Shown one piece after another: positions 3,630-30,606 of a DNA stretch of 30,606 nt; positions within the stretch are counted from its first letter, which is position 1; each line of letters begins with the position of its first letter. Origin of the DNA: an uncultured Clostridia bacterium. GTDB taxonomy: Bacteria; Bacillota; Clostridia; Christensenellales; Aristaeellaceae. Under the pieces are notes generated by a model. The model was not told the origin of the DNA. It ran no database searches and saw only the letters and a list, made by a program, of their open reading frames with translations. Where the stretch lies: positions 1 through 30,606 of the forward strand of contig CAKUFG010000028.1 in assembly GCA_934647235.1 (NCBI GenBank). The letters run 5' to 3'. The position numbers were made by a program, and so were the translations under genes.

Positions 3630-3691
3630 GGGGTTCTCCTTTCTCTTTTTAGGGTAACAGATTGCAAAGCGTCGCCGCTTTAGGCACGGTT

Positions 3692-4840: not shown

Positions 4841-4854
4841 CTGTTTTTCCTCCC

Positions 4855-6722: not shown

Positions 6723-6780
6723 GTTCACTTTGCCTTTCCTGTGCGCATTTTTGCATCATTTGTCATTTGTTCGCGTTCAT

Positions 6781-6800
6781 ATTGGTCTGCTAAGACCAAT
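6781..6800. promoter_or_regulatory. Perfect 8+4+8 palindrome, candidate operator
   Basis: ATTGGTCT-GCTA-AGACCAAT. It lies just downstream of the predicted -10 of the HAD/ABC operon promoter and about 60-80 nt upstream of the predicted LysR-gene TSS. Confidence 0.45.
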
Positions 6801-6810
6801 TTCTGGCCAA

Positions 6811-6840
6811 AATATACCATGTGCTCTTGTTTTCTGTCAA
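6811..6840 (-). promoter_or_regulatory. SigA-type promoter of the HAD/sugar-ABC operon
   Basis: The minus strand reads TTGACA (6840-6835), an 18-nt spacer, then TGgTATATT (-10 at 6816-6811), i.e. an extended -10. Confidence 0.55.
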
Positions 6841-6855
6841 ATTCGATGTTACAAT
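6827..6855 (+). promoter_or_regulatory. SigA-type promoter of the LysR gene, back-to-back with the operon promoter
   Basis: TTGTTT (6827-6832), a 17-nt spacer, then TGtTACAAT (-10 at 6850-6855). Confidence 0.45.
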
Positions 6856-6892
6856 ACATCCATAATTAAAACTTATGGAAGCAGGGGTGCAT

Positions 6893-7816: not shown

Positions 7817-7919
7817 CCACAAAATACAAAACAAAAACCAAATCCATCGGTAAACGCCTTGTGCCGGGGCTGTCAGATGTGATAAACTGACTGAAAATAC
7901 GTAAGCGGGGAGTATCACA

Positions 7920-9287
7920 ATGAAGAAGCGATTGAACGGAAGAGAAACGCTGCTGATCGCCACGATGCTGTTCGGCATGTTTTTTGGCGCGGGGAATCTG
8001 ATTTTCCCGGTTTATATGGGACAGCTGGCGGGCCGCAATATCTGGAAGGCCATCGCCGGCTTTATCATCACGGGCGTCAGCATGCCGCTGCTGGGCGTAG
8101 CGGCCATCGGCGTCAGCCGCAGCAACGGCCTGTTTGAGCTCAGCTCCAAGGTCAGCCGCCCCTACGGCTACTTTTTCACCTGCGCGCTGTACCTGTCCAT
8201 CGGCCCCTTCTTCGCCATCCCGCGCTGCGCGACGGTGCCCTTCACCGTGGCGGTATCCGGCCTGCTGCCCGCCGAGGAGCAGGGGCTGGCGCTGGCTGTT
8301 TTCTCGCTGATCTTCTTTGCGCTGGTGCTGGGCTTCTCGCTCAATCCGGGCAAAATCCTCACCTACGTCGGCAAGGTGCTGACCCCCGTTTTTCTGGTCT
8401 TCCTGGCGATCCTGGTAATCATGGCGCTGGTCAATCCCGTGGTGGATGTGGCCGCGGTGGAGCCGCAGGGCAGCTATGTTTCAAAGTCCTTCTTCACCGG
8501 CTTTCTGGAGGGCTACAACACCATGGATATGCTGGCCAGCCTGGCCTTCGGCATCGTGGTAATCAACGTGCTGCGCTCCCTGGGCGTCAACGAGCCGCAG
8601 GATATCGCGCGCTCCACAGCCAAGGCGGGCTTTTTCAGCTGCCTGATCATGGCGGTGATTTACGTGTTCGTCACCCTGATGGGCGCGCAGAGCAGCGGCA
8701 TGGGCGTCGCCTGCGCCAATGGCGGCGAGGTGCTCTCGGTGGTTGCCAACCATTATTTCGGCCGCGCGGGCGCGCTGATTCTGGCCGCGACGGTCACGCT
8801 GGCGTGCCTCAAAACCTCGGTCGGGCTGGTTACCAGCTGCGCGGAAACCTTTGTAGCGCTGTTCCCCAAGGGCCCGCGCTACCGCGTATGGGCGGTCATT
8901 TTCAGCGTGCTCTCCTTCCTGGTGGCCAATCTGGGCCTGAGCGCGATCATCGATTACTCCCTGCCGGTGCTGATGCTGCTGTATCCGCTGGCCATCACAC
9001 TGGGGCTGCTGGGTTTGCTGGGCGGCATCTTCCAGCATGACCGCGCCATTTATGCTTCCGTCACCTTCTTCACCCTCGTCGCCGCGCTGTTCGACTTCTT
9101 CAAGGCGCTGCCTAAGCCTGTCATCAGCAAGCTACACCTGCAGGGCGCGATCGACTTTGCCGAGAAGACGCTGCCCTTCTTTGACCTGAGCGTGGGCTGG
9201 CTGTGTCCTGCCATCGTGGGCCTGGCTGTTGGCATAGGCATCCGGCTGATCCGCCGCAGACGCGCCTCCGCCAGGACCGCCGCATGA
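7920..9287 (+). CDS. brnQ: Branched-chain amino acid transport system II carrier (LIVCS family), 455 aa
   Basis: N-terminus LLIATMLFGMFFGAGNLIFPVYMGQLAG is diagnostic of BrnQ. About 12 hydrophobic segments are present. Confidence 0.92.
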   Translation: MKKRLNGRETLLIATMLFGMFFGAGNLIFPVYMGQLAGRNIWKAIAGFIITGVSMPLLGVAAIGVSRSNGLFELSSKVSRPYGYFFTCALYLSIGPFFAIPRCATVPFTVAVSGLLPAEEQGLALAVFSLIFFALVLGFSLNPGKILTYVGKVLTPVFLVFLAILVIMALVNPVVDVAAVEPQGSYVSKSFFTGFLEGYNTMDMLASLAFGIVVINVLRSLGVNEPQDIARSTAKAGFFSCLIMAVIYVFVTLMGAQSSGMGVACANGGEVLSVVANHYFGRAGALILAATVTLACLKTSVGLVTSCAETFVALFPKGPRYRVWAVIFSVLSFLVANLGLSAIIDYSLPVLMLLYPLAITLGLLGLLGGIFQHDRAIYASVTFFTLVAALFDFFKALPKPVISKLHLQGAIDFAEKTLPFFDLSVGWLCPAIVGLAVGIGIRLIRRRRASARTAA

Positions 9288-13141: not shown

Positions 13142-13157
13142 ATTTGCGTTTATGCTT

Positions 13158-13838
13158 TTATTTTCTGAACATCCTGCGGCGCTTCCACTGGGCGTACTGG
13201 ATATGCGCCGTCTTGTAGATATCCTCGCCGAAGAACAGCGCCACATTGACCAGCGAAGCGATGGCCGCGCAGCGGAACTGCGTCGGGCCGGAAATAAGAG
13301 CGATCAGGAAATAGACAAGGTCGAGAGCCGCCAGCCACTTGGCCTTGACCGGGATGACGAAAAACAGCATAAACTGCTCGTCCGGATACAGCGCGGCAAA
13401 GGCCAGGAACAGCGACATATACAGATAGGCGTTCGTGCCTACGCCATAGCCGGTAATCAGGTGTCCGATAAACGCGCCCGCCACATTGGCCGCTGCGCCG
13501 ATCACATAATAGATCAGAAAGCGCCGCGCGCCCCAGCGATTTTCCAGCGCCGTGCCGATCAGATAGTAAAAATACAGGCTAATGACGCACCACAGAATCC
13601 TGGTATCGGTGGGAATAATCAGCCATGTCACCAGCCGCCAGACCTGCCCCTGCAGCACGGCGGGAATGTTCAGCGTCAGATACCCCATCAGGTCAAGGTG
13701 CGCGGTGTAGGCCGTGGTCATGCCCAGAAACAGATCCAGCAGGAACACGCCGCCCATGGCAAAGATGATATAGCGCATGATGGGCGGGATGTTGTATTTG
13801 TACAGCCTGCGCTCCAGGCGATTGAGCCAATTGTGCAT
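13158..13838 (-). CDS. Rhomboid-fold polytopic membrane protein, apparently non-catalytic, 226 aa
   Basis: Carries the rhomboid L1/TM2 signature QVWRLVTW...IGTALENRWGARRFLIYYVIG and about 6 hydrophobic segments. ATG at 13838 has RBS GGGAGGTG. By-eye alignment to GlpG places Thr where the Ser nucleophile sits and finds no TM6 His. Confidence 0.65.
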   Translation of the reverse strand: MHNWLNRLERRLYKYNIPPIMRYIIFAMGGVFLLDLFLGMTTAYTAHLDLMGYLTLNIPAVLQGQVWRLVTWLIIPTDTRILWCVISLYFYYLIGTALENRWGARRFLIYYVIGAAANVAGAFIGHLITGYGVGTNAYLYMSLFLAFAALYPDEQFMLFFVIPVKAKWLAALDLVYFLIALISGPTQFRCAAIASLVNVALFFGEDIYKTAHIQYAQWKRRRMFRK

Positions 13839-13880
13839 AGGCACCTCCCAAGATAAAAAATGCTTTGCCTTTCCATTTCT

Positions 13881-13909
13881 ATTATACCCGGTTTCTGTTT
13901 TCGCGTCAA
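13881..13909 (-). promoter_or_regulatory. SigA-type promoter of the rhomboid-like gene
   Basis: The minus strand reads TTGACG (13909-13904), a 17-nt spacer, then TATAAT (13886-13881). Confidence 0.55.
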
Positions 13910-13923
13910 TCATTGCCGCACGC

Positions 13924-13953
13924 GCATGCTTTGCAGCCCTTCTGCGCACAATA
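13924..13953 (+). promoter_or_regulatory. Candidate forespore sigma-G-type promoter for spoVA
   Basis: GCATG (13924-13928), an 18-nt spacer, then CACAATA (13947-13953). The B. subtilis sigma-G consensus is GHATR-18-CATXHTA, so there is one mismatch. It sits about 150 nt upstream of spoVAC. Confidence 0.3.
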
Positions 13954-14104
13954 AGGCTGAAAACATGCCGGAGGCGCAGCCATGGACAATCAACACCGCT
14001 CGTTTCCTCATCCGCTGCTGCGGCTGCCGCGCGCGGGCGACCGGGAAATCCGCCAGAAGGATATCCGCGCGCTGCCGATCAGCCGGGAAAGGAAGTGCTG
14101 AGCA

Positions 14105-14566
14105 ATGCAGCAAAGCTCCTCAAAACAGGATCGAATCGCACAGTACAAGGCGCTGATCGCCCGTTTGACCCCCAAGAGCAAGGTAGGCCAGGGCGCGCTG
14201 CGCGCCTTCTGGGTAGGCGGCGCCATCTGCGTGCTGGGGCAGGTCATCAGCGATATCGGCACGCGCATGCTGGGCCTGACGCTGATGCAGGCCTCCAGCC
14301 TGACCAGCGTGACGCTGGTGTTTCTGACCGCCCTGCTGACGGGCGTCGGCGTGTTTGACGTGATCGCCAAATACGCGGGCGCAGGCACCGTGGTGCCCAT
14401 CACCGGCTTTGCCAACGCCATGGTATCCCCCGCAATGGAGTTTCGTCCCGAGGGCTGGGTGCTGGGCACGGGCGCGCGGCTGTTCACCATTGCCGGGCCT
14501 GTGCTGGTATACGGCGTTTCAGCATCGGTCATCGTGGGCATCGTCTACTATTTTATCTATCTGTGA
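14105..14566 (+). CDS. spoVAC: Stage V sporulation protein AC, 153 aa
   Basis: LRAFWVGGAICVLGQ...AGAGTVVPITGFANAM...GPVLVYG is typical of SpoVAC. The gene heads the spoVAC-AD-AE order. Confidence 0.93.
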   Translation: MQQSSSKQDRIAQYKALIARLTPKSKVGQGALRAFWVGGAICVLGQVISDIGTRMLGLTLMQASSLTSVTLVFLTALLTGVGVFDVIAKYAGAGTVVPITGFANAMVSPAMEFRPEGWVLGTGARLFTIAGPVLVYGVSASVIVGIVYYFIYL

Positions 14567-14574
14567 GGCCCGGT

Positions 14575-15615
14575 ATGCAGGCAGAAAATCGCATTGGTTA
14601 TCAAACCATTGAATACAGAACAAAGCCCTGGATCATGGCCTCGGCCTGCGCGGTCGGCCCGCGCGAAGGGCAGGGCCCGCTGGGCGACTGCTTTGATCTG
14701 GTGGCGCAGGACGCGGCCTTTGGGCAGAATAGCTACGAGCAGGCCGAGGCCGCGCTGCTGCGCGAAGCCTGCCGGCTGTGCCTGGCCAAGGCCAGCGTCG
14801 GCGAAAAGGGCGTGCAGGCCATGGTGGGCGGCGATCTGCTGAACCAGATCATGCCCTCCGCCCTGGCGGCACGGGAATTGAAATTCCCCTTTCTCGGCCT
14901 GTACGGCGCGTGCAGCACCATGTCCGAAGGGCTGCTCACAGGCGGCATGATGTGCGACGGCGGCTATGCTTCGCCTGTGCTGTGCACGGCCAGCAGCCAT
15001 TACGCCACGGCGGAGCGGCAGTACCGCTACCCGCTGGAATACGGCAATCAGCGCTCGCCCGCATCGCAGTGGACGGTCACGGGCGGCGGCGCAGTGCTGC
15101 TCAGCCTGCCCGAAGCCCTGCCCGGCACGCCCATGGCACGGCTGGCGCGCGGCTGCATCGGCCGGGTGGTGGATCTGGGCGTAACCGACAACAACAACAT
15201 GGGCGCGGCCATGGCCCCGGCTGCCGCGGCCACCCTGTGCGCCTATATGGACGATACAGGCGATACGCCCGAACAGTTTGACCGCATCATCACGGGCGAC
15301 CTTGGCATGGTGGGCAGCGACCTTCTGCTGGCCTGGTGCGAAAAGATGGGCCATTCCCTGCCGCGCGAGCGCATGATGGACTGCGGTCTGACCATTTATG
15401 ATCCCTCACAGGACAGCCACGCGGGCGGCTCGGGCTGCGGATGCTCGGCCACCGTGCTCAGCGCCTATATCCTGCCCCGCATTCAGCGCGGCGAGTGGAA
15501 GCGCGTGCTGTTCATGGCCACAGGCGCGCTGCTCAGCCCCACCACTACGCAGCAGGGCGAGAGCATTCCGGGCGTGGCGCACGCGGTAATCATCGAGGGG
15601 GTGGGCGCATGCTGA
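14575..15615 (+). CDS. spoVAD: Stage V sporulation protein AD (thiolase-like fold), 346 aa
   Basis: IGYQTIEY...ASACAVGPREGQGPLGDCFD... matches the SpoVAD N-terminus. ATG at 14575 has GAGG 6 nt upstream. The alternative GTG at 14563 overlaps the spoVAC stop. Confidence 0.92.
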   Translation: MQAENRIGYQTIEYRTKPWIMASACAVGPREGQGPLGDCFDLVAQDAAFGQNSYEQAEAALLREACRLCLAKASVGEKGVQAMVGGDLLNQIMPSALAARELKFPFLGLYGACSTMSEGLLTGGMMCDGGYASPVLCTASSHYATAERQYRYPLEYGNQRSPASQWTVTGGGAVLLSLPEALPGTPMARLARGCIGRVVDLGVTDNNNMGAAMAPAAAATLCAYMDDTGDTPEQFDRIITGDLGMVGSDLLLAWCEKMGHSLPRERMMDCGLTIYDPSQDSHAGGSGCGCSATVLSAYILPRIQRGEWKRVLFMATGALLSPTTTQQGESIPGVAHAVIIEGVGAC

Positions 15616-15980
15616 CAATGCTACTGATGTACGTCAAGGCCTTTGCCGTGGGCGGGCTGTTCTGCCTGATCGGCGAAATCCTGATCCTGAAAACCAAGCT
15701 CACACCCGCGCGCATCCTGGTGTGCTATATCACGGCGGGCGTGATTCTCAGCGCCGTCGGGCTGTACGGCCCCATCGCGCAGTTTGCGGGGGCAGGTGCT
15801 ACGGTGCCCCTGACGGGCTTTGGCCACGCGCTGGCGCAAGGAGCCATCCGCGCCGTGCAGGAAACCGGGCTGCTGGGCGCCTTCACCGGCGGGCTGACAG
15901 CCACTGCGGGCGGCATTGCCGCAGCGATATTCTTTGGCTTTCTGGCCGCGCTGTGCTTTAAGCCCAAGCCCAAGACATAA
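15609..15980 (+). CDS. spoVAE: Stage V sporulation protein AE (AEB-type), 123 aa
   Basis: MLTMLLMYVKAFAVGGLFCLIGEIL...GAGATVPLTGFGHAL. The ATG at 15609 overlaps the spoVAD stop (ATGCTGA). Confidence 0.9.
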   Translation: MLTMLLMYVKAFAVGGLFCLIGEILILKTKLTPARILVCYITAGVILSAVGLYGPIAQFAGAGATVPLTGFGHALAQGAIRAVQETGLLGAFTGGLTATAGGIAAAIFFGFLAALCFKPKPKT

Positions 15981-15999
15981 CGTGCAAAGCAATTTTCAT

Positions 16000-16038
16000 G
16001 CATCCTCTGATAATTCGAAGGATGCTTTTTTATTTTTT
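16000..16038 (+). terminator. Intrinsic terminator after spoVA operon
   Basis: GCATCCT (16000-16006) / AGGATGC (16019-16025) stem, followed by TTTTTTATTTTTT. Confidence 0.85.
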
Positions 16039-16069
16039 CAAAAAACGGCTTTAATTTTGCTCAACTGGC

Positions 16070-16098
16070 TTGCGTGCCAATTGAATCTGCGCTATAAT
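16070..16098 (+). promoter_or_regulatory. SigA-type promoter of the hydrolase / giant protein / sortase operon
   Basis: TTGCGT (16070-16075), a 17-nt spacer, then TATAAT (16093-16098). Confidence 0.5.
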
Positions 16099-16173
16099 GA
16101 AGCTGGTATATAAGCGCCGCATCTCTTCTTGATTTCCGCACATAAAGCAATCTGCCAAAGGAGCCGTAAAGCT

Positions 16174-17277
16174 ATGAAAAAATGGATCAAGCGCATCCTG
16201 GCCGCCCTGCTGGTTTTGGTCCTCGTGTGCGTGCTTGCCTTCTGCGGGCTGTATCTGGGCCGATTCAGAACCCTCGCCTCCATCCGCAAGGTAAGCGCCT
16301 ATGAGGACGGCTACAACCTGTACCGCATGGACGTCAGATACGATTACAGCCTGGACGATATCATTGCCGGCGGCATCACCAGCGATCAGAGCATGGTCAA
16401 CGCCATTGTCAAGGAAGCGCTGCCGCTGCTGCCCGTCAGCATCAAGGCCCCCTCCTTTGGCTGCACGGCCTTTACCATGCAGGATACCGACGGCGATATC
16501 CACATGGGCCGCAACTATGACTTTAAGGACGACACCTCGGCCATGCTGGTATACTGCACGCCCAAGGGCGGCTACAAATCGGTGGCGCTGGCGGCGCTGA
16601 ACAACATCTCCGCCAACACCCCCGACGCCAGCACCAAACAGAAGCTTGCCGCGCTGACCGCGCCCTTTATCTGCCTGGACGGCATGAACGAAAAGGGCGT
16701 ATCCATCGCCGTGCTCACGCTGGACAGCGCGCCCACGCGCCAGTCCACCGGCAAGCCGGTCATCGCCACCACGCTGGCCATCCGCCTGGTGCTGGACCGC
16801 GCAGCCACCACGCAGGAGGCTGTGGAGCTGTTGAAGGGCTATGATATGTTCGCCTCCTCGGGCCGCGACTATCACTTCTATATCACCGACGCTTCGGGCG
16901 ACGGCCGCGTAATCGAATATGACTGCGACGATCCCGCCCGGGGTCTGGTAGATACCAAGACCGAGGCCGTGACCAACTTCTTTGTGATGTACAAGGACAA
17001 GGTGCTGCCCAACCAGAAAAACGGCGTCTACGGCCATGGCCGCGAGCGCTACGACGCGGTGCTGGGCGTATTCCAAGCCAGCGCCGCCCACACCAACGAT
17101 ACCGCCTGGCAGGCTCTGCAGGCCGCCGCGCAGGATCCCAACCCGCAGGATATCACCAGCAACACCCAGTGGTCGCTCAATTATAACGATACCGACCTGA
17201 CGGTGGAAATCGTGCTGCGCCGCCATTGGCAGGATATCTTCCGCTATGCGCTGAACGGCAACCAGCTTCAGCAATAA
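16174..17277 (+). CDS. Membrane-anchored Ntn hydrolase, choloylglycine-hydrolase/penicillin-V-acylase family (linear amide C-N hydrolase, C59-like), 367 aa
   Basis: N-terminal TM/signal anchor MKKWIKRILAALLVLVLVCVLAFCGL. The motif G96|C97-TAFTMQDTDGDIHMGRNYDF matches the family's N-terminal CT(A/S)(I/F)T...FGRN(F/Y)D(Y/F) pattern. RBS AAAGGAG lies upstream of the ATG at 16174. Confidence 0.8.
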   Translation: MKKWIKRILAALLVLVLVCVLAFCGLYLGRFRTLASIRKVSAYEDGYNLYRMDVRYDYSLDDIIAGGITSDQSMVNAIVKEALPLLPVSIKAPSFGCTAFTMQDTDGDIHMGRNYDFKDDTSAMLVYCTPKGGYKSVALAALNNISANTPDASTKQKLAALTAPFICLDGMNEKGVSIAVLTLDSAPTRQSTGKPVIATTLAIRLVLDRAATTQEAVELLKGYDMFASSGRDYHFYITDASGDGRVIEYDCDDPARGLVDTKTEAVTNFFVMYKDKVLPNQKNGVYGHGRERYDAVLGVFQASAAHTNDTAWQALQAAAQDPNPQDITSNTQWSLNYNDTDLTVEIVLRRHWQDIFRYALNGNQLQQ

Positions 17278-17320
17278 CCCATTCATTCCCCGCACAACCA
17301 GAATTATGGAGGTACGCCCC

Positions 17321-20300
17321 ATGCTTAAGCGTCTGTGCAGCCTTTTGCTGATCCTCGCACTGCTTTTCACCCTGCTGCCCGCGCAGGCTGATATCACCCC
17401 GCTGACGCAGCAGGAAATTGCCGCCGCGCGCGCCTTCATCGCCATGGAGGGCGAAGGCAGCAGCTGGCAGCAGAGCATGGCGATCACGGCGGATATGAAC
17501 GCCCTGCAGGTGCAGCAGTATCTGGAATGGCTTTTGTCCGATGAAATCGGCGGGCTGATGAACCAGGTGCTCGACAGCGCGGAGCTGCTGAACCTGGGCC
17601 AGGCCGGCAAGGGCGCCTCTCTTGAGGGCGTGGGGCTTACGCTGCAGCAGCTGCGCAACCGTATTACCAGCTATCATGATACGCTGGAGCAGGGGCGCCG
17701 CTCGGTGTACAACAATCTGCTTCAGCTCAACAGCAATGCCAATATGTCCGCACAGGGCAAATTGCGCATCGCCATCCGCGTGCGCGACGATATGGCTGAA
17801 ATGCAGCGCGTGATCGACGTTGTAGCGAAATACTACGAGCAATACCATCAGCTTTTGGAGCAAAGCACCATCAGCTTCTCCAACCTTTTGCAGGCCGCCG
17901 ATTCGCCCGACAACGGAATCACCGGCGCAGCATTGGGCAAGCTGAACAGCGAAGCCAAGGCCCTTCTGAACGCCGAGCTGCGGCAGATGAGCGCGCAGAA
18001 CGACGTGGACTTCAATGTCGTCGTGCTCTCCTCCAAGCAATTCGGTTTTATCGTGCGCAACAGCAGCGGCGCTCCGCTCAAGGGCGTAAAGGTGCACGTT
18101 TCCTGCACTGCCAGGCCCACCCTCTATCAGGACGGCCAGACCAACAACGAAGGCCTGGTTACCTTCCTGACCAAGGACTTTGACCCGGATGAAGAAAACC
18201 GGATCGTCGTCAATGTGACGCTGACCAGTGATTATTACTGCACGCGCGAGATGCGCCGCCTGACCATGCGCGGCGGTTCAGCCGAGCCGGTAGCGCTGGA
18301 GGCTTATACCGGCAAGCCCTTCCTGCGCATGGCGGGCTTTAACGGCACCGATATCCTCAGCCAGAAAAACACCATCTTCTACTCCCCCAAGAACGATTCC
18401 CTGCACTACTTCGATATTCTGATCGATAACCTGGGCAAAACCAGGATCTCGGGCTGGATGTATCTGTGCTACAAGGTTTACGATGACAGCGGCGAGCTGG
18501 TGGACAAGGAAGAACGGCGCAGCTTCACCTCAGGCACGGCCGTTTCCTTTGCCGGCCAGTACTGCCAGCAGATCGCCCCCGGCTCCGCCGTAACCGTGCG
18601 CGTGGAAACGCCCAGCTTTACCCGCACCTACCAAACCCAGCTGCAGATTGAAAAGGCCGTGGTGGACGAGCCTACGTTCATCAACACCAAGAACCTCTCC
18701 TTCACCGGCCCCGGCCTCAGTCTGACCTTCCCGGAGGAAATTCCCTTCTTCGGCGGCAGCAATCTGACCATCGGCATGCCGCAGGCCCCCGCCCAGCTGG
18801 TCATCGACCCCAGCGGCTATATCCAGTTTGCCTATGGGCACGATTTCCGCAGCGAAACGCTGAACTGGAAAAGCGAAGGCCAGAAGCAGGTGGAGCAGCG
18901 CATCAACAACGCGGCCCGGCGCGCGCAGCGCGACGCCAACGCCGTCGATAACCAGGTGTACCGCAATGCCGGCGCAAAGGATAATATAAAGTTCATCGGC
19001 AACACCACAGCCGCCGTCACCGTCTTTGCAGGCATGCAGGGGCGCGTCAAGTCCGACGCTTCCCGCATCAGCCTCAGCGGCAGCGGCGGCATCCAGGCCG
19101 CGTTCAAGGGCGGCTTTGGCTGGCAGGCCTTTGTGGCGGGCTTCATTCCCGTCTTTGCCGCGCTGGATATGACCTTCGCCCTGGGCGCTTCCTTCGGCCT
19201 GGGCCTGGAGGCCGATCTGCCCAACCTGAGCAACCCCAAATTCCAGTACAACAACGGCATGGGCCTGACCATTGAAATGCTGGCCGAGCTGGGCGTAAGC
19301 CTGGGTCTGGGCGTGCGCGGGGTAGCCAACATCGCGCTGCGCTTCTTTGGCAAAATCGTCCCCAAGCTCAAGCTGAGCACCACGGCCAGCGCGGCCGTCG
19401 CGCTGGGCTTTGGCCTTGAGGTTACGGTGCAGCTGCTCCTCCTCAAATGGAAGCAGAGCCTCTGGCAGGGCAGCTACAGCCTGGATACCGAATCCAACGG
19501 CGGCTCGCTGCAGGGCACCCTGCCCACGCTGAACCAGGGCGCAAGGATCTACCCGGCCGTCAACACCCCTGCCGCCGCAAATACCCTGCTGCCCGTCAGG
19601 AACGGCGGCGGCCTGCCTGCCGATAGGGAAGAGGTTGTGTTCTCCCGCCTGGACAGCATATCGCAGGAAATCCAGTACGCCACGCTGACCTCCTCCGCCG
19701 GGGATCGCTCCGCCACCTTTGGCTTCTGGATTACCCCCGCCGACGGCAGCGCCAATCGCCAGGCCGAGCTGGTGTGGTACAATCTGGATCACCCGGCCAA
19801 CCACGGCGTTGTCTATTACATCGGCAGCGGCGATACCTACCGCCAGACCGAAAGCACCGACTATGCCTTCGCCGTCATGGGCCATCAGAACGTGGTGGCC
19901 GTCAACGTGCTCAGCGGCAAATTTGCCGACGGCAGCGCCACGCCCGAAACCAGCCGCTCCACCCTGGCCGTGATGGAAACCGTTATGCTGGCGGACGGCT
20001 CGCTGTCGCTGGAGCTCTTCCGCAATGTCGTATCCCCCAGCCAGATAGACATCGCCTATTATTACCCCACCGATCTTGTGGCCGGCGGGCAGGACGGCTG
20101 CAGCCTGTCCGCGCCGCTGATCTATCTGATCCATTATAACGACGGCGGCTGGTTTGCCAACGCTGCCTATAACCTCGAATACGTATTCAACGGCCATACC
20201 GCCGAGATTGTCTCAACCGACATGCAGTATCGGAACGGCCAGCTTTCCAAGTCCATCGCTGTATCGTATAACCCCGACGCCGACGACAGCGCGGGCACCA

Positions 20301-22357
20301 CTACCTCCATCACCCGCAAGCTTGCCAGCGCCCGCCCCGGCTCGGTCACGGTGGACGGCCTGCCCGTCCGCGCCGACAGCCTGGCCTGTTACTACCGGCT
20401 GAACGTATCCCGCGAGACTGCGGATATCGCAGATGAGGGTACCACCCTGAGCCTGTTTATGAACGGCACCAGGCTCTATGTGGATACGGACGTAATGTTC
20501 TTTGCCCCGCTGGTGGAATACGGCGCGATCCCCGATCAGGCGAACCATCTGTTCTATCTGAAAAAGGGCCAGGCGGACGACGGCTCCGATTGCTACCGCC
20601 TGATGGGCATGTCCAGCAAGGGCTACCAGAACTACACCGTCCGCGATTACGATGTGCCCATGTACGCCGAAAGCTTCAAAACCGTCACCGTGGACGACGG
20701 CAAGGAATACGGCATCGTCTATCTGTACTGGACGGAATGCGTGTCCCCCAGCGAGTACAATGCCAATGAAAGCTATCAGGTCAAGTGCGTGCGCTTTGAC
20801 CGCGCCAGCAACACCATGTCCGCGCCCTTCACGCTGGTAGAGCTGTCGCAGATGCCCAGCAGCCTGCACATCCAGATGGACGGCACGGGCTTCTACACCA
20901 CCGAGCTTCCGGAGGGCGAGGCCGCGCAGCTTCCCGCCGATTCCGCCGCCGTCAGCCAGCGGCTGGTGCACTTCACCTTCAGCCTGCAGACGGCCGTATC
21001 CCTGACCGGCGTTGCCTCCTACGATCCCTGCGTATGCGCGGGCGAATACGCCTCGCTGCTCTTCTCGGTCAAGAACACGGGCAACCTGCCGGTATCGCGC
21101 TTCATGGTAGCCATCGTGGAAAACGGCTCCTCCACGCCCGTGCAGACCATTACGGTGGATTGCCTCAATCCGCAGACAAACAGCGTCAACAGCCTGTTTG
21201 CCAACGCGGCGGATTCGGCCTATTCGGTCAACCGCGTAGACAGCCTGTACGACGACATCAACGGCGATACCTGGCTGATTACCGCCAGAAATCTGCCTGC
21301 GCAGAGCACGCAGTACGCGCTGTACGCCGATTCCAACGAGATAACCGAGCTGATTCACACCGACCTGCTGATGCCCGGGGACGTGCATGTCTATCAGGCC
21401 GCCTTCAGGGTGCCCGAGGACTGGAACGGCACAAAGCAGCTGACCGCCATGCTGGGGCAGGTGTTCGCGCTGACGCACTATACCAACGCCCTGAACGGCT
21501 CCAACGCAAACTCGCTGGACTTTGAATATGCCTTTGATGAAAACGGCACGCTGCTTTACAGCAATCAGAACACCCCCTCCCGCATCGGCGTAAAGCGCGC
21601 CAGCGTAAGCGCGGCGGAATTCAGCAAGGAGATCGGCGTGGGCGCGGGCGATCTGATGCTGGACTGCCAGCCCTACACCGACCTGGACGGCACGGAATAT
21701 GTGCGCGTCAACATCGTGGGCCGCTCCGAAACCGCCAGCAAGGCCGCCCCCACCCTGACCGCCTCGCTGAACGGCGTCACGGTATTCTCCTATCGCTTTG
21801 CCAACGCCATCGACGAGGACTTTGGCTACACGCTGGATATCCCGGCCTCCCGGCTGCTGATGGGTCAGGCCAGCGGCGAGGTGCTCTTTACCGTGACGGA
21901 CAACGAAGCGGACGAAAGCATGTCCGAGTTTTCGGACTTTGACAACCAGGCTTCCGTCGTGCTGGGCGCGTCCCTGCACATGGTGCTGCAGCCGGCCTCC
22001 ATCACCGTGAAGGAGGGCGAAAGCGCAGTCTTCTCCGTCTCCGTATCGGGCGGCGTTCCGCCCTATACCTACCAGTGGCAACGTTCCATCAACGGCCGCT
22101 GGGTGGATATCGACGGGGCAACGGGCGCGACGTTCGTGCTGACCAATGTGTCTAAAAACGATTACGGCGCAAGGTTCCGCTGCAGCGTGCGCGACAGCCT
22201 GGGCAGCCACGTCATATCGGAGGAGGCCGCACTGACCGTGCAGGCCAACGTGCCCGTTACCGGCGATACCGCCCAGCCTGTTCTCTGGGCCGCGCTGCTG
22301 ATCGCCGCCCTCCTGCTGCTGTGCCTGCTGCGCCGCCGCGGCAAGCAGCAGAATTAA
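17321..22357 (+). CDS. Giant secreted, sortase-anchored surface protein of unknown function, 1,678 aa
   Basis: GGAGG lies 8 nt upstream of the ATG at 17321. Signal peptide is MLKRLCSLLLILALLFTLLPAQA|D. Modules recognised by eye, in order: a helical region of about 200 aa; a CarboxypepD_reg-like beta-sandwich (about 18010-18190, FGFIVRNSSGAPLKGVKVHV...NNEGLVTF); a hydrophobic Gly-rich block (about 19070-19470); CARDB-like modules (about 20998-21130, GEYASLLFSVKNTGNLPVSRFMVAIVENG); an Ig I-set-like domain (about 21975-22245); and a C-terminal sorting signal. Confidence 0.9.
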   Translation: MLKRLCSLLLILALLFTLLPAQADITPLTQQEIAAARAFIAMEGEGSSWQQSMAITADMNALQVQQYLEWLLSDEIGGLMNQVLDSAELLNLGQAGKGASLEGVGLTLQQLRNRITSYHDTLEQGRRSVYNNLLQLNSNANMSAQGKLRIAIRVRDDMAEMQRVIDVVAKYYEQYHQLLEQSTISFSNLLQAADSPDNGITGAALGKLNSEAKALLNAELRQMSAQNDVDFNVVVLSSKQFGFIVRNSSGAPLKGVKVHVSCTARPTLYQDGQTNNEGLVTFLTKDFDPDEENRIVVNVTLTSDYYCTREMRRLTMRGGSAEPVALEAYTGKPFLRMAGFNGTDILSQKNTIFYSPKNDSLHYFDILIDNLGKTRISGWMYLCYKVYDDSGELVDKEERRSFTSGTAVSFAGQYCQQIAPGSAVTVRVETPSFTRTYQTQLQIEKAVVDEPTFINTKNLSFTGPGLSLTFPEEIPFFGGSNLTIGMPQAPAQLVIDPSGYIQFAYGHDFRSETLNWKSEGQKQVEQRINNAARRAQRDANAVDNQVYRNAGAKDNIKFIGNTTAAVTVFAGMQGRVKSDASRISLSGSGGIQAAFKGGFGWQAFVAGFIPVFAALDMTFALGASFGLGLEADLPNLSNPKFQYNNGMGLTIEMLAELGVSLGLGVRGVANIALRFFGKIVPKLKLSTTASAAVALGFGLEVTVQLLLLKWKQSLWQGSYSLDTESNGGSLQGTLPTLNQGARIYPAVNTPAAANTLLPVRNGGGLPADREEVVFSRLDSISQEIQYATLTSSAGDRSATFGFWITPADGSANRQAELVWYNLDHPANHGVVYYIGSGDTYRQTESTDYAFAVMGHQNVVAVNVLSGKFADGSATPETSRSTLAVMETVMLADGSLSLELFRNVVSPSQIDIAYYYPTDLVAGGQDGCSLSAPLIYLIHYNDGGWFANAAYNLEYVFNGHTAEIVSTDMQYRNGQLSKSIAVSYNPDADDSAGTTTSITRKLASARPGSVTVDGLPVRADSLACYYRLNVSRETADIADEGTTLSLFMNGTRLYVDTDVMFFAPLVEYGAIPDQANHLFYLKKGQADDGSDCYRLMGMSSKGYQNYTVRDYDVPMYAESFKTVTVDDGKEYGIVYLYWTECVSPSEYNANESYQVKCVRFDRASNTMSAPFTLVELSQMPSSLHIQMDGTGFYTTELPEGEAAQLPADSAAVSQRLVHFTFSLQTAVSLTGVASYDPCVCAGEYASLLFSVKNTGNLPVSRFMVAIVENGSSTPVQTITVDCLNPQTNSVNSLFANAADSAYSVNRVDSLYDDINGDTWLITARNLPAQSTQYALYADSNEITELIHTDLLMPGDVHVYQAAFRVPEDWNGTKQLTAMLGQVFALTHYTNALNGSNANSLDFEYAFDENGTLLYSNQNTPSRIGVKRASVSAAEFSKEIGVGAGDLMLDCQPYTDLDGTEYVRVNIVGRSETASKAAPTLTASLNGVTVFSYRFANAIDEDFGYTLDIPASRLLMGQASGEVLFTVTDNEADESMSEFSDFDNQASVVLGASLHMVLQPASITVKEGESAVFSVSVSGGVPPYTYQWQRSINGRWVDIDGATGATFVLTNVSKNDYGARFRCSVRDSLGSHVISEEAALTVQANVPVTGDTAQPVLWAALLIAALLLLCLLRRRGKQQN
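22250..22354 (+). other. C-terminal cell-wall sorting signal (VPVTGD + hydrophobic helix + RRRGKQQN tail)
   Basis: PVTG is encoded at 22253-22264. It is followed by TAQPVLWAALLIAALLLLCLL and the basic tail RRRGKQQN, giving the tripartite architecture of sortase substrates. Confidence 0.7.
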
Positions 22358-22384
22358 TCGCTGCACAAGAAAAGAGATCTCCCC

Positions 22385-23365
22385 TTGAAACGCAAAGCTG
22401 ACTTTCCATCGCGTGGACGAACGCGCAGATATCGCTGCATCAGCAGGCGCGGCAGGATGCTGCGCCTGCTGACGGCTGTATGCCTGTGCTGCATTGCGGC
22501 GTTCTGTGCGGTCAAGCTGATTCGCTACGCCCTGGACGCCCGCCGCGCCAGGCTGGCCTACGACGCGCTGCGCGAGGTTTATTACAGCTCCGATACCGAG
22601 CCGCCCAGCGCAAGCCTCGTCCCCTTCCCCACACCCATGCCTGCGCCAACTCCTACACCCATTAGCAAAGCCACCGCTGTGCCTGCCTATACCCCTCCGC
22701 CCGATATCCTGCCCGCCGTCCGCTATCCAGGCAATCCATCCGCCGCCGTCAGCAGCCGGTTCACGCGGCTTCAGCGGCAAAACGCGGATATCATCGGCTG
22801 GCTGAACATCCCGGACATGCTGGACGAGGCCGTGGTGCAGCGCGATAACAGTTACTATCTGAACCGCGATTACCGGGGCTATCACAACGCCAACGGCGCG
22901 ATATTTCTGGATGAATCCTGCCAGCTGGACGCCCGCCCATACACGCTGATTCTGTATGGGCACAACATGAAAACGGGCGCGATGTTCGGCAGCCTGCGCA
23001 ACTATGAGAACCTGCGCTATTATAAGAACAACCCCTTTATCACCTTCGATACGGCCTATGAAGAGGGCGACTATGTGGTCTTCGCAGCCGCCGCCATCGA
23101 CATAAACCCCGACGGCCTGCGCTATGTCGATCTGGCTGCGCTCAGCTCGCTGTCCGTCGAAACGCGCCAGGCAGCCATCACCGCGCTGAAAACGCGCTCC
23201 ATTTATCAGAATAGCCTGGATGTGCAGGCGGACGATCAGCTATTGCTGCTGATTACCTGCACCCAAAGCGACAACGAGCGCCGGGTAATCGCCGCGCGCC
23301 GCATCCGCACGGATGAAACCAGGGAAGCGCTGAGCAGCGTTATCCAGCAAACCTCCAAAAAATAA
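22385..23365 (+). CDS. srtB: Class B sortase, 326 aa (start uncertain: TTG 22385 or ATG 22457)
   Basis: IIGWLNIPDMLDEAVVQRDNSYYLNRDY...GAIFLD...LILYGHNMKTGAMFGSL (catalytic His), LLLITCT (Cys) and RRVIAARRIR (Arg). An N-terminal basic segment plus TM is followed by a Pro-rich linker. Confidence 0.88.
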   Translation: MKRKADFPSRGRTRRYRCISRRGRMLRLLTAVCLCCIAAFCAVKLIRYALDARRARLAYDALREVYYSSDTEPPSASLVPFPTPMPAPTPTPISKATAVPAYTPPPDILPAVRYPGNPSAAVSSRFTRLQRQNADIIGWLNIPDMLDEAVVQRDNSYYLNRDYRGYHNANGAIFLDESCQLDARPYTLILYGHNMKTGAMFGSLRNYENLRYYKNNPFITFDTAYEEGDYVVFAAAAIDINPDGLRYVDLAALSSLSVETRQAAITALKTRSIYQNSLDVQADDQLLLLITCTQSDNERRVIAARRIRTDETREALSSVIQQTSKK

Positions 23366-23366
23366 A

Positions 23367-23406
23367 GCAAAACAGAGCCGTTATAAAAAGCGGCTCTGTT
23401 TTTTTA
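23367..23406. terminator. Bidirectional intrinsic terminator (sortase operon / ABC importer operon)
   Basis: 10-bp stem AACAGAGCCG (23371-23380) / CGGCTCTGTT (23391-23400), followed by TTTTT and preceded by an A-rich tract. Confidence 0.9.
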
Positions 23407-27484: not shown

Positions 27485-28942
27485 TTAATTATCGCCGCGA
27501 TGATAGCGGATCTTCATATTCTCAGAGGCGTTGCGCAGCACCTGCCCCAGCGCCTTATCGGATTCGGCCCTGACCATTTCGGCGATCTTCTTGTTGGCCT
27601 CAGCCAGCAGGGCCGGATCGTTTTTCGCAGAAAACTTTTCGTCATATTCGCACAAAAGCTTTCTGCCCTTGTTCCAGACGGCGTTCTGATAGCGCTCGTC
27701 CAGCAGAATCGCCTTGAAATAGTGCGCGTCGGTCAGGGCGGCAATCAGGCGGCTGTGCCAATACATGCTGTCGGTGGAAACGGTATCCTTTGTGGCGCTG
27801 AAATAGGCCGGCAGGCTGTCCACCGCCGTATACAGCGGGAAGCAGGCCGTAAAGCCGCTGCCGCCCATGGAAAACCACTGCACGCCCTTGAGCGCGTCGG
27901 GCATATAGCCGCGAATCTGCATGATGCCGCACACATCGCTGTTGGGCACGCCGATGGTGCGGTACTTGCCATGGAAGGCCGCCGTTTTATCATAGGGATC
28001 ATAGGGCGTGCCCTGATAGTGCGAGCCCAGCAGGTAGCGGATATCCTCGACCGTGATCCTGCGCTCGGGCACAAAGGACCAGGGCAGATCGTTGCTTTCG
28101 GGGGTGAAATCCGCGTTGGGGCCATCCCAGCGATAGGTGCGCTCCAGCAGATACCGGGCCATAAACCAGGCTCTGGGCGTGTTGTAGATATGGTCGCTGT
28201 CGCTTCTGGAGCCAAAAGCCAGACGGGGATTGAAGCCCTCGCCCAGTCCAGTGTAGAGGTGATTTTTCTCCACAAAGTCCTTCAGATCGGCCGAACAAAG
28301 GTTCTCCCTGCCCGCGCCGTAAGCGTCCTCAAAGTCAAAATGATCCAGGCCAAACTGGTTGGGCATGATGACCACACGGTCGTCCGGCACACGCTTGGCA
28401 ATCCAGTGGTGCCCGCCGATGGTTTCCAGCCACCACACCTCGTTTTCATCGGCAAAGGCCATGCCGTTAGGCTCATAGGTGCCGTACTGCTCCAGCAGCG
28501 CGCCCATGCGCAGCACGCCTTCGCGGGCGGTATGGATATAAGGCAGGATCACCGTCACCAGATCCTCCTCGCCCAGGCCGCCGGGCACCTCCTTTTTGCT
28601 GCCCTTTCTGGGCTGATACGCCACATAGGGGTCGGCCCCCAGCACCCGGGGATTAGAGGTAATGGTCTCAGTAGCCGTCATGGCCACATTGGCAGCGTTG
28701 ATGCCGCAGGCCGGCCACACGCCGTGCGTTTGGGTCACATTGGGCGCCACGGTATAGCGCATGGGATCGTCGGGCAGCTCCACCTTCAAATGCGAAATCA
28801 CGGTTTTATAGGTTCGTTTCTGATCCTTGGGCTGAACCACAATCAGCCGCTTGGCCTCAAAGCCGCCGTCGTCATTGCGCGAAATCAGCGTAGAGCCGTC
28901 GTTGGTGGCCAGCTTGCCGGCCAGAATCGTCGTGCAGGGCAT
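27485..28942 (-). CDS. C69-family dipeptidase (Cys Ntn hydrolase), 485 aa
   Basis: Starts MPCTTILAGKLATNDGSTLISRNDD (Cys3 nucleophile context typical of peptidase C69). Length fits the family. Confidence 0.9.
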   Translation of the reverse strand: MPCTTILAGKLATNDGSTLISRNDDGGFEAKRLIVVQPKDQKRTYKTVISHLKVELPDDPMRYTVAPNVTQTHGVWPACGINAANVAMTATETITSNPRVLGADPYVAYQPRKGSKKEVPGGLGEEDLVTVILPYIHTAREGVLRMGALLEQYGTYEPNGMAFADENEVWWLETIGGHHWIAKRVPDDRVVIMPNQFGLDHFDFEDAYGAGRENLCSADLKDFVEKNHLYTGLGEGFNPRLAFGSRSDSDHIYNTPRAWFMARYLLERTYRWDGPNADFTPESNDLPWSFVPERRITVEDIRYLLGSHYQGTPYDPYDKTAAFHGKYRTIGVPNSDVCGIMQIRGYMPDALKGVQWFSMGGSGFTACFPLYTAVDSLPAYFSATKDTVSTDSMYWHSRLIAALTDAHYFKAILLDERYQNAVWNKGRKLLCEYDEKFSAKNDPALLAEANKKIAEMVRAESDKALGQVLRNASENMKIRYHRGDN

Positions 28943-29232: not shown

Positions 29233-30606
29233 TTATAGCTTCTCGAAAACTACCCTGCAGCGCTTTTTGCAGAAAGCAATGCCGAACGCAGTGATATGCT
29301 CCCGACCTTCGTTGCGCAATCGTTCGTCGTAGCGCTTTTCTTTGATCTGATTCATTGCCGCTTCGCACACGCTTTCCATCCCTGCCAGCGTCGGTGAGTA
29401 TTTTACCTCAATCACGATACCCGCATCCGGATCTTCCGGCTCGATAAGGATATCGCTGAATCCATCGCCTGATTCCGCATTGGACAAAATCAGCCAGTTT
29501 GGTTCGCTCCGCAGAAGCCCCAGCAGCAGTCCGTGATAGAAGTTTTCCTTCTGGTCGTCCTTCGCTTTTGTGTCCAGTATGCTGATCATTTTTCCAAGAA
29601 TCACTGTCAACCGTTTCTGAATTTCCTCCGCGTTTCCATCCAGAAACGCCTGACAGAACGCCTGCATGGGCTTTTCGTCATGGACAACCGTTTCCTTAAA
29701 CCATTCCTGAATCTGGAGGATGAATACTTCCCGCACCTCGCTGTTGGGGATGATCAGTTTATATACGCTGCGCTCAACTTTTCCCGCCTGCGTCAGATAA
29801 CCCGTGGTAAACAAAACGCTCCAGAGGTTATCGATGCTGTTGTCGATTTCGTTGTAGGTCAGTTCCAGCCGAACCGCCTTCTCGATGGCTTCTCCCGCAA
29901 TGAGCCGCTCGATCTCGCCCTGCGTGGTCTTATCGGCTTTATCCACGAAACGCCTGACCAGATCGTTTCCGCTGGTGTTGATCCAGTAGGCCTGGGGTTC
30001 TGCGTTCGGTTCGCCGCAAAGTCGGTCTACGTGGTTGATCACGTCCCATGGGCAATACACGTCCACGCTGCCAAAGCGATAGCCGTCATACCATTCTTTT
30101 GTTTCGCCGTAATGCGCTGTCAGGTTATAATCGTCCAGGAGCGTCTTCACTTCAGCATCTGTGAAGCCGAAGTGCTCGTCGAAGCGGCTGTCCGTGATGG
30201 ACAGCACCTTGAAGTTGTTCAGCCCGGTAAAGATGCTTTCCTTCGATACGCGCAGGCAGCCCGTCAGCACCGCGAATTGCAGGTAATCGTTCGTTTTCAG
30301 CGCCTGACCGAACAAACCGCGAATCAGCGCGACCATCTCTTTATAGTAGCCGTGCTGGAACGCTTTATCCAAAGGCACGTCGTATTCGTCGATCAGGAGG
30401 ATGGTCTTTTGACCGTAATGCTGATAGAGCAAGGAGGAGAGCATCTTGAGACTTTCCTGCACGTCATCCATCGTGTCCTGTTCTTTCAGAAAACGTTCAA
30501 ACGGGCGTTTATCATCTTCAGCTATACGCTCGCTCTGCTTCAGAAAGCCAAGCCTCGAAAATTCCGACCGCAAGATGCGCCGCAGCATCCCATAGGCCTC
30601 CTCAAA
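29233..30606 (-). CDS. AAA-ATPase-like + PD-(D/E)XK nuclease (DUF1703/PDDEXK_9-type) protein, 5'-truncated by window edge
   Basis: The frame is open to nt 30606 (FEEAYGMLRR...). Walker-B-like LLIDEYDVPL is followed by YDGYRFG, YWINTSGND and LFTTGYLT. The C-terminal nuclease core is FYHGLLLGLL...ESGDGFSDILIEP...IVIEVKY. The Walker A region lies outside the window. Confidence 0.85.
   Translation of the reverse strand, partial: FEEAYGMLRRILRSEFSRLGFLKQSERIAEDDKRPFERFLKEQDTMDDVQESLKMLSSLLYQHYGQKTILLIDEYDVPLDKAFQHGYYKEMVALIRGLFGQALKTNDYLQFAVLTGCLRVSKESIFTGLNNFKVLSITDSRFDEHFGFTDAEVKTLLDDYNLTAHYGETKEWYDGYRFGSVDVYCPWDVINHVDRLCGEPNAEPQAYWINTSGNDLVRRFVDKADKTTQGEIERLIAGEAIEKAVRLELTYNEIDNSIDNLWSVLFTTGYLTQAGKVERSVYKLIIPNSEVREVFILQIQEWFKETVVHDEKPMQAFCQAFLDGNAEEIQKRLTVILGKMISILDTKAKDDQKENFYHGLLLGLLRSEPNWLILSNAESGDGFSDILIEPEDPDAGIVIEVKYSPTLAGMESVCEAAMNQIKEKRYDERLRNEGREHITAFGIAFCKKRCRVVFEKL

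Follow-up and report, generated by a model that had tools for sequence, protein, structure and literature searches.

A giant wall-sorted surface protein and its divergent class-B-type sortase share a predicted transcription unit with a membrane-anchored Cys-Ntn amidohydrolase that is probably not their dedicated maturation factor

Positions 16000 to 23406 of contig CAKUFG010000028.1, which derives from an uncultured Clostridia bacterium, a spore-forming Firmicute (here, the window is the whole stretch analysed, 30,606 nucleotides (nt) in length), encode three predicted envelope proteins: a membrane-anchored amidohydrolase of the cysteine-type N-terminal nucleophile (Cys-Ntn) class (gene 1), a secreted surface protein of an uncharacterised family (gene 2, below referred to as the giant) and a class-B-type sortase (gene 3). 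The pairing of the sortase with the giant is strongly supported by the covariation of sorting motif and sortase type across related loci. The hydrolase, on the other hand, most likely shares only its promoter with the giant-sortase pair and is unlikely to be dedicated to maturing or releasing the giant. On balance, we lean towards a reading in which the two parts are co-expressed and biochemically independent, with the giant and its sortase forming a cassette that became docked behind a conserved envelope amidase; a direct biochemical coupling of hydrolase and giant is unsupported and seems unlikely to us.

The sequence confirms a single promoter-to-terminator unit of three genes, which are predicted to be co-transcribed (Table 1). 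Its left edge is an intrinsic terminator at which a forward-strand spoVAC-spoVAD-spoVAEB operon (assigned by Pfam) ends. The hairpin at the right edge also folds on the minus strand and is thus able to end a convergent ATP-binding cassette (ABC) transporter operon as well (minus strand; permease, ATPase and solute-binding protein), which stops at 23422 and is followed by a C69 dipeptidase gene. Both terminators were missed by a simple consensus scan, since their loops are longer than its 8-nt rule allows, and the scan was replaced by folding against shuffled sequences with RNAfold; by this measure, neither intergenic gap holds a hairpin or terminator beyond chance (z -0.3 and +0.5). Exactly three forward-strand genes lie between the terminators, separated by gaps of 43 nt (genes 1 and 2) and 27 nt (genes 2 and 3), and genes 2 and 3 each have a ribosome-binding context of their own. 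The -35 (TTG[C/T]GT) and -10 boxes of the promoter are invariant in three related loci (L001, L009 and L036), to which homology begins at 16066, just 5' of the -35 box. An earlier reading made from the sequence alone (the sequence-only reading) had described these terminators, the promoter and hairpin-free gaps, all of which hold, and had allowed for a second gap of either 27 or 99 nt. The longer gap, with the sortase starting at ATG 22457, is ruled out: the 24 codons from TTG 22385 to this ATG specify a tail rich in Arg and Lys, whose protein sequence is conserved across six lineages, and gene 3 therefore starts at the TTG. Long antisense open reading frames in the window (916, 555 and 535 aa) were rejected as genes, as they have no Pfam match and are typical artefacts of DNA with 60% G+C, which is approximately the G+C content of the window.

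Gene 3 encodes an Arg/Lys-rich cytoplasmic tail, a transmembrane segment, a Pro-rich linker and a catalytic domain with His193, Cys292 and Arg299/300. It matches the Pfam Sortase family (PF04203; 39.5 bits against a cut-off of 26.6, 5.4e-10), and its best sortase model is TIGR03064 (srtB; 6e-38), although at 130.5 bits it remains below the equivalog cut-off of 153.75, and we therefore describe it as class-B-like but divergent. Its top matches in the Protein Data Bank (PDB) are all SrtB enzymes, the best being Bacillus anthracis SrtB (2oqw, 2e-22), and in the alignment to that enzyme LYGH193NM corresponds to the His motif and LITC292 to the Cys motif. His193, Cys292 and Arg299/Arg300 are invariant in the six lineages, with the identity of the catalytic Arg assigned from its position only. 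The giant, in turn, combines an N-terminal signal peptide with a C-terminal motif, VPVTGD, followed by about 20 hydrophobic residues and the charged tail RRRGKQQN; P1645, T1647, G1648 and D1649 are invariant or nearly so across the family. It conforms neither to the canonical LPXTG motif nor to the Gram_pos_anchor hidden Markov model (HMM): the motif is VPVTG, and no Pfam anchor domain is matched. In a survey of about 40 loci with giant homologues, the motif [V/F/E]P[V/L]TGD is always followed, immediately downstream, by a sortase of the window type (59-100% identity), and PP[K/A]TGD is followed by a distant type of adjacent sortase (31-34% identity), while loci without an adjacent sortase have, with few exceptions, LPQTGD or PPTTGD. 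The adjacent sortase is retained in at least eight giant lineages, and the giant and the sortase diverge together (82% and 84% identical, respectively, to the closest other allele, in L001). The tripartite sorting signal, the SrtB triad and the sortase-substrate pairing proposed in the sequence-only reading are thus borne out, and the sortase is predicted to cleave the motif of its neighbour and to link it to peptidoglycan. Giants without an adjacent sortase are found at L005-L007, L015, L018 and L023 (the clade with 47% identity to the giant of the window) and at L008 and others (the 31% clade), with PPTTGD or the canonical LPQTGD as motif; this distribution indicates that sorting passed between housekeeping and dedicated sortases during the evolution of the family.

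Dedicated class B sortases with their own substrates are well known. In the isd locus of Staphylococcus aureus and B. anthracis, srtB is paired with IsdC, a haem-binding NEAT-domain substrate. A further precedent is the AbpA-SrtB pair of oral streptococci (PMC4974636), and the SrtB substrates of Clostridioides difficile carry (S/P)PxTG motifs (PMC5569036). As in these loci, gene 3 adjoins the gene for a non-LPXTG substrate, its catalytic His and Cys can be aligned with those of SrtB enzymes of known structure, and motif and sortase covary. In contrast to these loci, VPVTGD differs from the described SrtB motifs NPQTN, NPKTG, (S/P)PxTG and LPKTxAVK, the sortase scores below the TIGR03064 equivalog cut-off and has an Arg/Lys-rich tail and a Pro-rich linker, and the substrate, a 1,678-aa protein of an uncharacterised family, is neither a small adhesin nor a NEAT protein that binds haem. 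The sortase-substrate part of the unit is hence a variant of the well-known dedicated-SrtB locus; new are the motif, the divergent sortase and an uncharacterised substrate with an unmatched N-terminal half. Together, the matched class-B-type sortases and their non-canonical motifs (VPVTG, FPVTG and PPxTG) constitute a natural set for understanding and engineering sortase specificity.

The product of gene 1 belongs to the Cys-Ntn hydrolases, with matches above the cut-off to the Pfam families CBAH (PF02275; 52.5 bits against 20.4, 7.5e-14) and AAT (PF03417; 38.4 against 23.2, 1.4e-9). Its best NCBIfam match is C45_proenzyme (NF040521; residues 87-331, E 5.7e-20), of which it is a borderline relative, as its 71.9 bits fall below the cut-off of 85. 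A bile salt hydrolase (BSH) assignment was rejected (23.3 bits to the NF038245 equivalog against a cut-off of 350). The N-terminus (MKKWIKR followed by 21 hydrophobic residues) is a signal-anchor at residues 7-28, which is followed by a conserved pro-segment up to Gly96 and by the catalytic chain from Cys97 onwards. SFG|C97TAF, Arg113 and Asp116 are invariant in 15 orthologues; in the alignment with penicillin V acylase (PVA; 3pva), Cys97, Arg113 and Asp116 correspond to Cys1, Arg17 and Asp20, and the profile alignment starts precisely at Cys97. Self-cleavage at Gly96|Cys97 is expected from family membership, and the enzyme is predicted to face outwards. The roughly 66 extracytoplasmic residues ahead of Cys97 are conserved among the orthologues as well, which suggests, by analogy with C45 and C89 enzymes, that they may form an alpha-chain that remains bound after self-cleavage. 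The sequence-only reading of gene 1 as an outward-facing, membrane-anchored hydrolase of the choloylglycine family stands as far as the Cys-Ntn family, the anchor and the predicted orientation are concerned; the anchor, however, belongs to the pro-segment and not to the catalytic chain, so that the mature enzyme would be tethered only if the two chains stay associated. With PVA and BSH (Pfam CBAH, MEROPS C59) gene 1 shares the nucleophilic Cys, an Arg at +16 and an Asp at +19, in addition to the Pfam matches, and with the C45 acyltransferase-type proenzymes it shares the Gly|Cys junction. Against solved PVA or BSH structures it scores no more than about 26 bits, and it differs from these enzymes, which are soluble and carry their Cys at or close to position 2, in an N-terminal segment of 96 residues comprising a membrane anchor and a conserved piece of ectodomain. 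The family is large (1,865 homologues, of which the best 120 are all at least 70% identical). One homologue, P0198, from the 90% cluster that contains the hydrolase with 82% identity, has 715 aa, roughly double the usual length, and may be a fusion or a gene-calling artefact.

Whether the hydrolase is tied to the giant was addressed by a neighbourhood survey. In six lineages, the window included, the hydrolase gene is followed by a giant gene after 25-60 nt, and the hydrolases concerned group into a single clade (neighbour-joining (NJ) bootstrap 88/100, from a tree run on a reduced taxon set). Identities to the window are 95% (hydrolase) and 82% (giant) in the L001 group, 80% and 59% in L116/L117, 79% and 54% in L012/L039, 73% and 37% in L020, and 71% and 33% in L028. 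Within the same clade, the giant is absent from L115 (hydrolase 82% identical) and from L118 (89%), where the upstream genes are as in L001 and the place of the giant is taken by a ThiF-like gene with its own TTGACA-17-TATAAT promoter. Among 64 metagenomic loci of the hydrolase that extend 1.5 kb or more downstream, a giant occurs within 7 kb in only six, five of them from the giant-linked clade; L100 and L022 are one contig, on which hydrolase and giant are 13 kb apart. Conversely, most giant homologues have an upstream partner other than the hydrolase: in the 57%-identity clade this is a cysteine peptidase that is secreted and Peptidase_C39_2-like, in the 31% clade it is a TetR regulator with a PrsA-like peptidyl-prolyl isomerase (PPIase), and in the 47% clade it is one of several small helix-turn-helix (HTH) regulators. 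A universal hydrolase-giant linkage is ruled out by this survey together with L115 and L118, and whole-block synteny as the cause of the adjacency is ruled out as well, the flanks of L012, L020, L028 and L116 being unrelated to those of the window. The coupling of an amidohydrolase to a SrtB substrate proposed in the sequence-only reading thus survives as an adjacency within one clade of six lineages; it does not extend to most other giant lineages, which lack the hydrolase at this place, nor to most hydrolase orthologues, which have no giant nearby. In the literature searched, we found no paper that links an Ntn hydrolase to a sortase substrate, which, to judge from our data, reflects a link that is for the most part genomic and not biochemical.

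The genes of the unit have also diverged to different extents. Compared with L001, amino-acid identity is 98-99.8% for the ABC transporter and 95% for the hydrolase, as opposed to the lower values of the giant and the sortase given above; synonymous divergence (dS) rises from 0.11 (ABC transporter) and 0.22 (hydrolase) to 0.35 (sortase) and 0.48 (giant), and the ratio of nonsynonymous to synonymous divergence (dN/dS) is 0.22 for both giant and sortase. At the nucleotide level, identity to L001 (and to L002, L009 and L035-L038) is about 94% for the hydrolase, 97-98% for the ABC transporter and 76-88% for the sortase and all of the giant except its start: its first ~160 codons are about 98% identical to L001, as are codons ~57-157 taken by themselves (98%). 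Over longer distances the hydrolase remains about 70% identical across lineages in which the giant drops to about 31-33% and, unlike the sortase, it shows no co-divergence with the giant. This unequal divergence is in keeping with an accessory cassette of adhesin and sortase that recombines and has docked behind a conserved gene. The stretch from 17800 to 23400 is a divergence hot-spot that looks like an allele exchange of the surface-protein cassette with one breakpoint inside the helical domain of the giant; the contrast of a diverged cassette with near-identical flanks points to such exchange at a surface-exposed protein, possibly driven by phages or by immunity.

Several observations weigh against full independence of the hydrolase. 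Its junction with the giant is tight and hairpin-free in all six lineages, although the giants have diverged to 33-82% identity and the outer flanks are not syntenic, a persistence that exceeds what would be expected for a neutral neighbour. No gene is found next to the hydrolase more often than that of the C39-like peptidase (30 of 80 loci, in either orientation), which in another clade immediately precedes the giant; at L110, hydrolase, C39-like peptidase and giant occur within 4.5 kb. This association may hint at a shared envelope function, or at an eroding ancestral block of envelope genes, and adjacency is in any case uninformative on action in trans. The same facts favour a dedicated role in processing or release, in which the tethered Ntn hydrolase would cut the giant, or the Thr-peptidoglycan linkage that anchors it, at an amide or isopeptide bond and so mature or shed the protein, with the C39-like peptidase, which bears a signal peptide, in the same role in sister clades. 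We regard this as unlikely. To our knowledge, characterised CBAH and C45 enzymes act on small amides or on themselves and not on protein substrates, and the lack of co-divergence, the many hydrolases and giants that occur without each other, and the close relatives that keep the hydrolase where the giant was lost or never gained all count against it. A precedent for an enzyme gene beside a sortase-anchored substrate does exist: in C. difficile, the SrtB substrates CD2831 and CD3246 are shed through the action of PPEP-1 (CD2830), a zinc Pro-Pro endopeptidase that is secreted and whose cleavage sites in the neighbouring protein have been proven, and c-di-GMP riboswitches regulate PPEP-1 and CD2831 oppositely (PMC5569036). 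Here too, the gene for a hydrolytic enzyme lies beside that for a SrtB-anchored surface protein. In contrast to PPEP-1, the enzyme is a membrane-anchored Cys-Ntn amidohydrolase that is mostly found without the surface protein, and the genes are predicted to share one promoter rather than to be counter-regulated; control by a riboswitch or leader RNA was rejected, as no Rfam family was found across the window, nor in the 15900-17400 leader at E values up to 1. The conservation patterns thus argue against a dedicated relationship of the CD2831/PPEP-1 type. A broader version, in which a new family of integrin-like giants at the surface of gut Oscillospiraceae would be matured, trimmed or released by dedicated and interchangeable accessory enzymes (the membrane-tethered Ntn amidohydrolase in the window, the secreted C39-like peptidase or the PrsA-like foldase in sister clades), also seems improbable to us; if true, a Cys-Ntn 'linear amide' hydrolase would for the first time be seen to act on a protein anchored by a sortase, or on the linkage of such a protein to the wall, and, more generally, a hydrolase acting on the surface protein would represent a new activity for Ntn hydrolases.

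Two further explanations concern the ligand and the transcript. The giant could bind a host or dietary amide (a conjugated bile acid, an N-acyl amide or a ceramide-like lipid) via its beta-hairpin domain or propeller (see below), to be cut by the tethered hydrolase underneath. The predicted co-expression from a shared promoter, the place of the hydrolase in the linear-amide (PVA/BSH-like) Ntn clan, the unusually hydrophobic, amphipathic and Gly-rich beta domain of the giant, which has no known counterpart, and the origin of all sources from gut metagenomes are in line with such capture; we nevertheless consider it distinctly unlikely, as each partner mostly occurs alone, the hydrolase falls far short of the bile-salt-hydrolase equivalog, nothing points to any ligand, and a wall-anchored protein of 1,678 aa would hold its binding site far from a membrane-tethered enzyme. 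Very unlikely, in our view, is that the genes are not one operon and that genes 2 and 3 are expressed mainly from a promoter of their own inside or just after gene 1, so that adjacency has no effect on expression. In other clades a TetR or HTH regulator lies directly upstream of the giant, which would fit separate units; here, a consensus scan, which is crude and would miss non-sigma-70 promoters, found no promoter-like forward-strand site between 16100 and 17320, the 43-nt gap contains only the GGAGG ribosome-binding site (RBS) and no hairpin, and the block of homology with relatives starts at the promoter upstream of gene 1.

Under the favoured reading, that of a co-expressed and biochemically independent hydrolase, a single sigma-70-type transcript would give rise to three envelope proteins. 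The giant would leave the cell by the Sec pathway and stay attached through the hydrophobic segment and charged tail at its C-terminus, until the co-encoded class-B sortase cuts it within VPVTG and joins it to peptidoglycan. At the surface it would most likely act as an adhesin or receptor-like protein, presenting its propeller on integrin-alpha-like legs together with two N-terminal domains. The hydrolase would be made as a type-II membrane proenzyme, self-cleave at Gly96|Cys97 and turn over a separate amide substrate on the outward side of the membrane; we infer this independence of function from the patterns described above. The giant and sortase would thus constitute an accessory, fast-diverging cassette that, in one lineage of gut Oscillospiraceae-like Clostridia, docked behind the hydrolase and uses its promoter. 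The case cautions that an operon-like junction can mean an accessory cassette docked behind a conserved gene rather than a common biochemical pathway: the claim of a hydrolase-sortase-substrate system is weakened, while the giant family and its motif-sortase covariation merit follow-up.

The giant itself is most likely an adhesin or receptor-like surface protein. It has 75 full-length-type relatives (1,620-1,750 aa, 29-97% identity), all unnamed or 'hypothetical', which come from human-gut Clostridia and Oscillospiraceae metagenome-assembled genomes (MAGs); the family is conserved over its full length and recurs in human-gut Oscillospiraceae-type MAGs, and the giant is probably a major surface structure of abundant, uncultured gut bacteria. 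Its domains were delineated on two AlphaFold2 (AF2) models, m560783d85a98 for the N-terminal and m3eafc007d885 for the C-terminal part (predicted local distance difference test (pLDDT) 77.5 and 79.7, respectively). The C-terminal half resembles an integrin alpha-subunit ectodomain in that a beta-propeller head is followed by a row of beta-sandwich legs, a resemblance at the level of architecture only (best Foldseek match 9iuj_A, E 1.1e-10, template modelling (TM) score 0.30-0.35). Identity is about 10%, and nothing indicates common descent; the domains differ in number, a beta-subunit partner is lacking, and the N-terminal 760 residues of the giant are without an integrin counterpart. The best Foldseek matches of the propeller are the propeller proteins integrin alpha-V, SorCS2, Sevenless and DDB1, and the immunoglobulin (Ig) domain resembles phage Ig-like decoration proteins in a PDB profile search. 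In the N-terminal part, the beta-hairpin domain shows hydropathy that alternates between odd and even positions, and numerous Gly and Phe residues in it are invariant across the family; neither it nor the N-terminal 760 residues gave a meaningful Foldseek match in PDB or BFVD (TM score at most 0.14). Its composition recalls membrane-inserting or lipid-facing beta-sheets, which is odd in a wall-anchored protein. With a propeller and an unmatched amphipathic beta-hairpin domain present, the impression that only generic beta-sandwich modules are recognisable in the giant has to be revised. No end-to-end match to a characterised family, which would have spoken against the sequence-only reading, was found in Pfam, PDB sequences or Foldseek searches of PDB and BFVD. 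An assignment as a known adhesin or enzyme was rejected, as Pfam/NCBIfam and the PDB profile search recognise only the C-terminal Ig domain and Foldseek, run on both AF2 models, returned nothing beyond generic beta-sandwich or propeller architectures with TM scores of at most 0.35, and no enzyme domain was found in the Pfam, NCBIfam, PDB profile and Foldseek searches. It was likewise rejected as a sortase-assembled pilin, there being no YPK[N] or VYPK motif in its 1,678 aa and a single substrate gene at the locus.

Table 1. Features of the three-gene unit. Positions are those of the window; aa, amino-acid residues of the respective product.
Feature	Position	Strand	Basis
Left intrinsic terminator	16000..16038	+	Hairpin in sequence; RNAfold -13.1 kcal/mol, z -3.4; followed by TTTTTTATTTTTT (T-run)
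Sigma-70-type promoter, TTGCGT-17 nt-TATAAT	-35 16070-16075, -10 16093-16098	+	Sequence; kept in relatives
RBS of gene 1, AAGGAG	16158..16163	+	Sequence; conserved in related loci
Gene 1, 367-aa type-II membrane-anchored Cys-Ntn amidohydrolase proenzyme	16174..17277	+	Pfam, NCBIfam, alignment to 3pva
Cys97 codon, predicted N-terminal nucleophile after Gly96-Cys97 self-cleavage	16462..16464	+	Orthologue conservation, PVA alignment
RBS of gene 2, GGAGG	17308..17312	+	8 nt ahead of ATG 17321; L116 has the same AGGAGGTAC-N-CCCCATG
Gene 2, 1,678-aa secreted wall-sorted modular surface protein, uncharacterised family	17321..22357	+	Translation, homologues
Signal peptide, aa 1-23 (...LPAQA|DITP)	17321..17389	+	Sequence; hydrophobic peak aa 1-10 in 19-residue windows
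Helical N-terminal domain, aa 30-225	17408..17995	+	AF2, pLDDT ~80-94
Two beta-sandwiches, aa 240-445, first CarboxypepD_reg-like	18038..18655	+	AF2; weak PF13620 match, stronger in homologues
Gly/Ala/Leu-rich amphipathic beta-hairpin domain, aa 552-722	18974..19486	+	AF2; strands of up to 24 residues
Disordered linker, aa ~723-768	within gene 2		AF2
Beta-propeller, aa ~769-1195	19625..20905	+	AF2, repeated four-strand blades; Foldseek
Three beta-sandwich 'leg' domains, aa ~1211-1534, first CARDB-like	20951..21922	+	AF2; weak Pfam CARDB match, aa 1240-1291; Foldseek
I-set-type Ig domain, aa ~1543-1641	21947..22243	+	Pfam Ig_3, ig, I-set; PDB profile 9d7z, 5.6e-11
Cell-wall sorting signal: VPVTG (22250-22264), Asp, hydrophobic segment, RRRGKQQN tail	22250..22354	+	Sequence, family conservation
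Gene 3, 326-aa class-B-type sortase, TTG start	22385..23365	+	Pfam Sortase, TIGR03064, SrtB structures
Right terminator	23367..23406	both	RNAfold + strand -22.1 kcal/mol, z -5.3; - strand -18.0 kcal/mol, z -3.9; T7 after + hairpin

Some further features of the loci surveyed are listed here. The C39-like peptidase has a papain fold, a signal peptide and a mature part of about 200 aa; it is encoded at L004 (4312-4995), L013 (~7280-7963), L110 (3125-3829, minus strand), L078 (5947-6873) and 26 further hydrolase loci, and in the 57% clade it takes the position of the hydrolase relative to the giant. TetR together with a PrsA-like PPIase of 365-430 aa (Rotamase) is found upstream of the giant at L008, L021, L022, L024, L025 and L030, with L027 noted alongside, and the PPIase is a plausible foldase for a huge secreted protein. 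At L116, TetR genes (7300-8004 and 15252-15935) flank the hydrolase-giant-sortase cluster, and the stop of one of them overlaps the hydrolase start, an overlap that is recorded for L116/L117. Two genes upstream of the giant-less hydrolase of L115, a 1,117-aa BspA-type LRR_5 surface protein is encoded (3613-6966).

In the window, 16066 marks a rearrangement breakpoint: upstream of it lies the spoVA operon, whereas the closest relatives (L001, L002, L009 and L118) have genes for a short-chain dehydrogenase/reductase (SDR), a biotin ligase, a monogalactosyldiacylglycerol (MGDG) synthase and an aldo-keto reductase/ferredoxin. The stretch from the promoter through the C69 dipeptidase is shared. The Peptidase_C69 dipeptidase (27485-28942, minus strand; E 9e-154) is a second Ntn-clan enzyme, unrelated in sequence to gene 1, and its linkage to the ABC transporter is kept in L001 and L002. 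Between the phosphoglucomutase gene and spoVAC (13152-14358), two overlapping forward-strand open reading frames (234 and 193 aa) have no Pfam match. At the right end (29233-30588, minus strand), a protein with predicted AAA-ATPase_like and PD-(D/E)XK (PDDEXK_9) domains is encoded in DNA of about 50% G+C, below that of the rest of the window.

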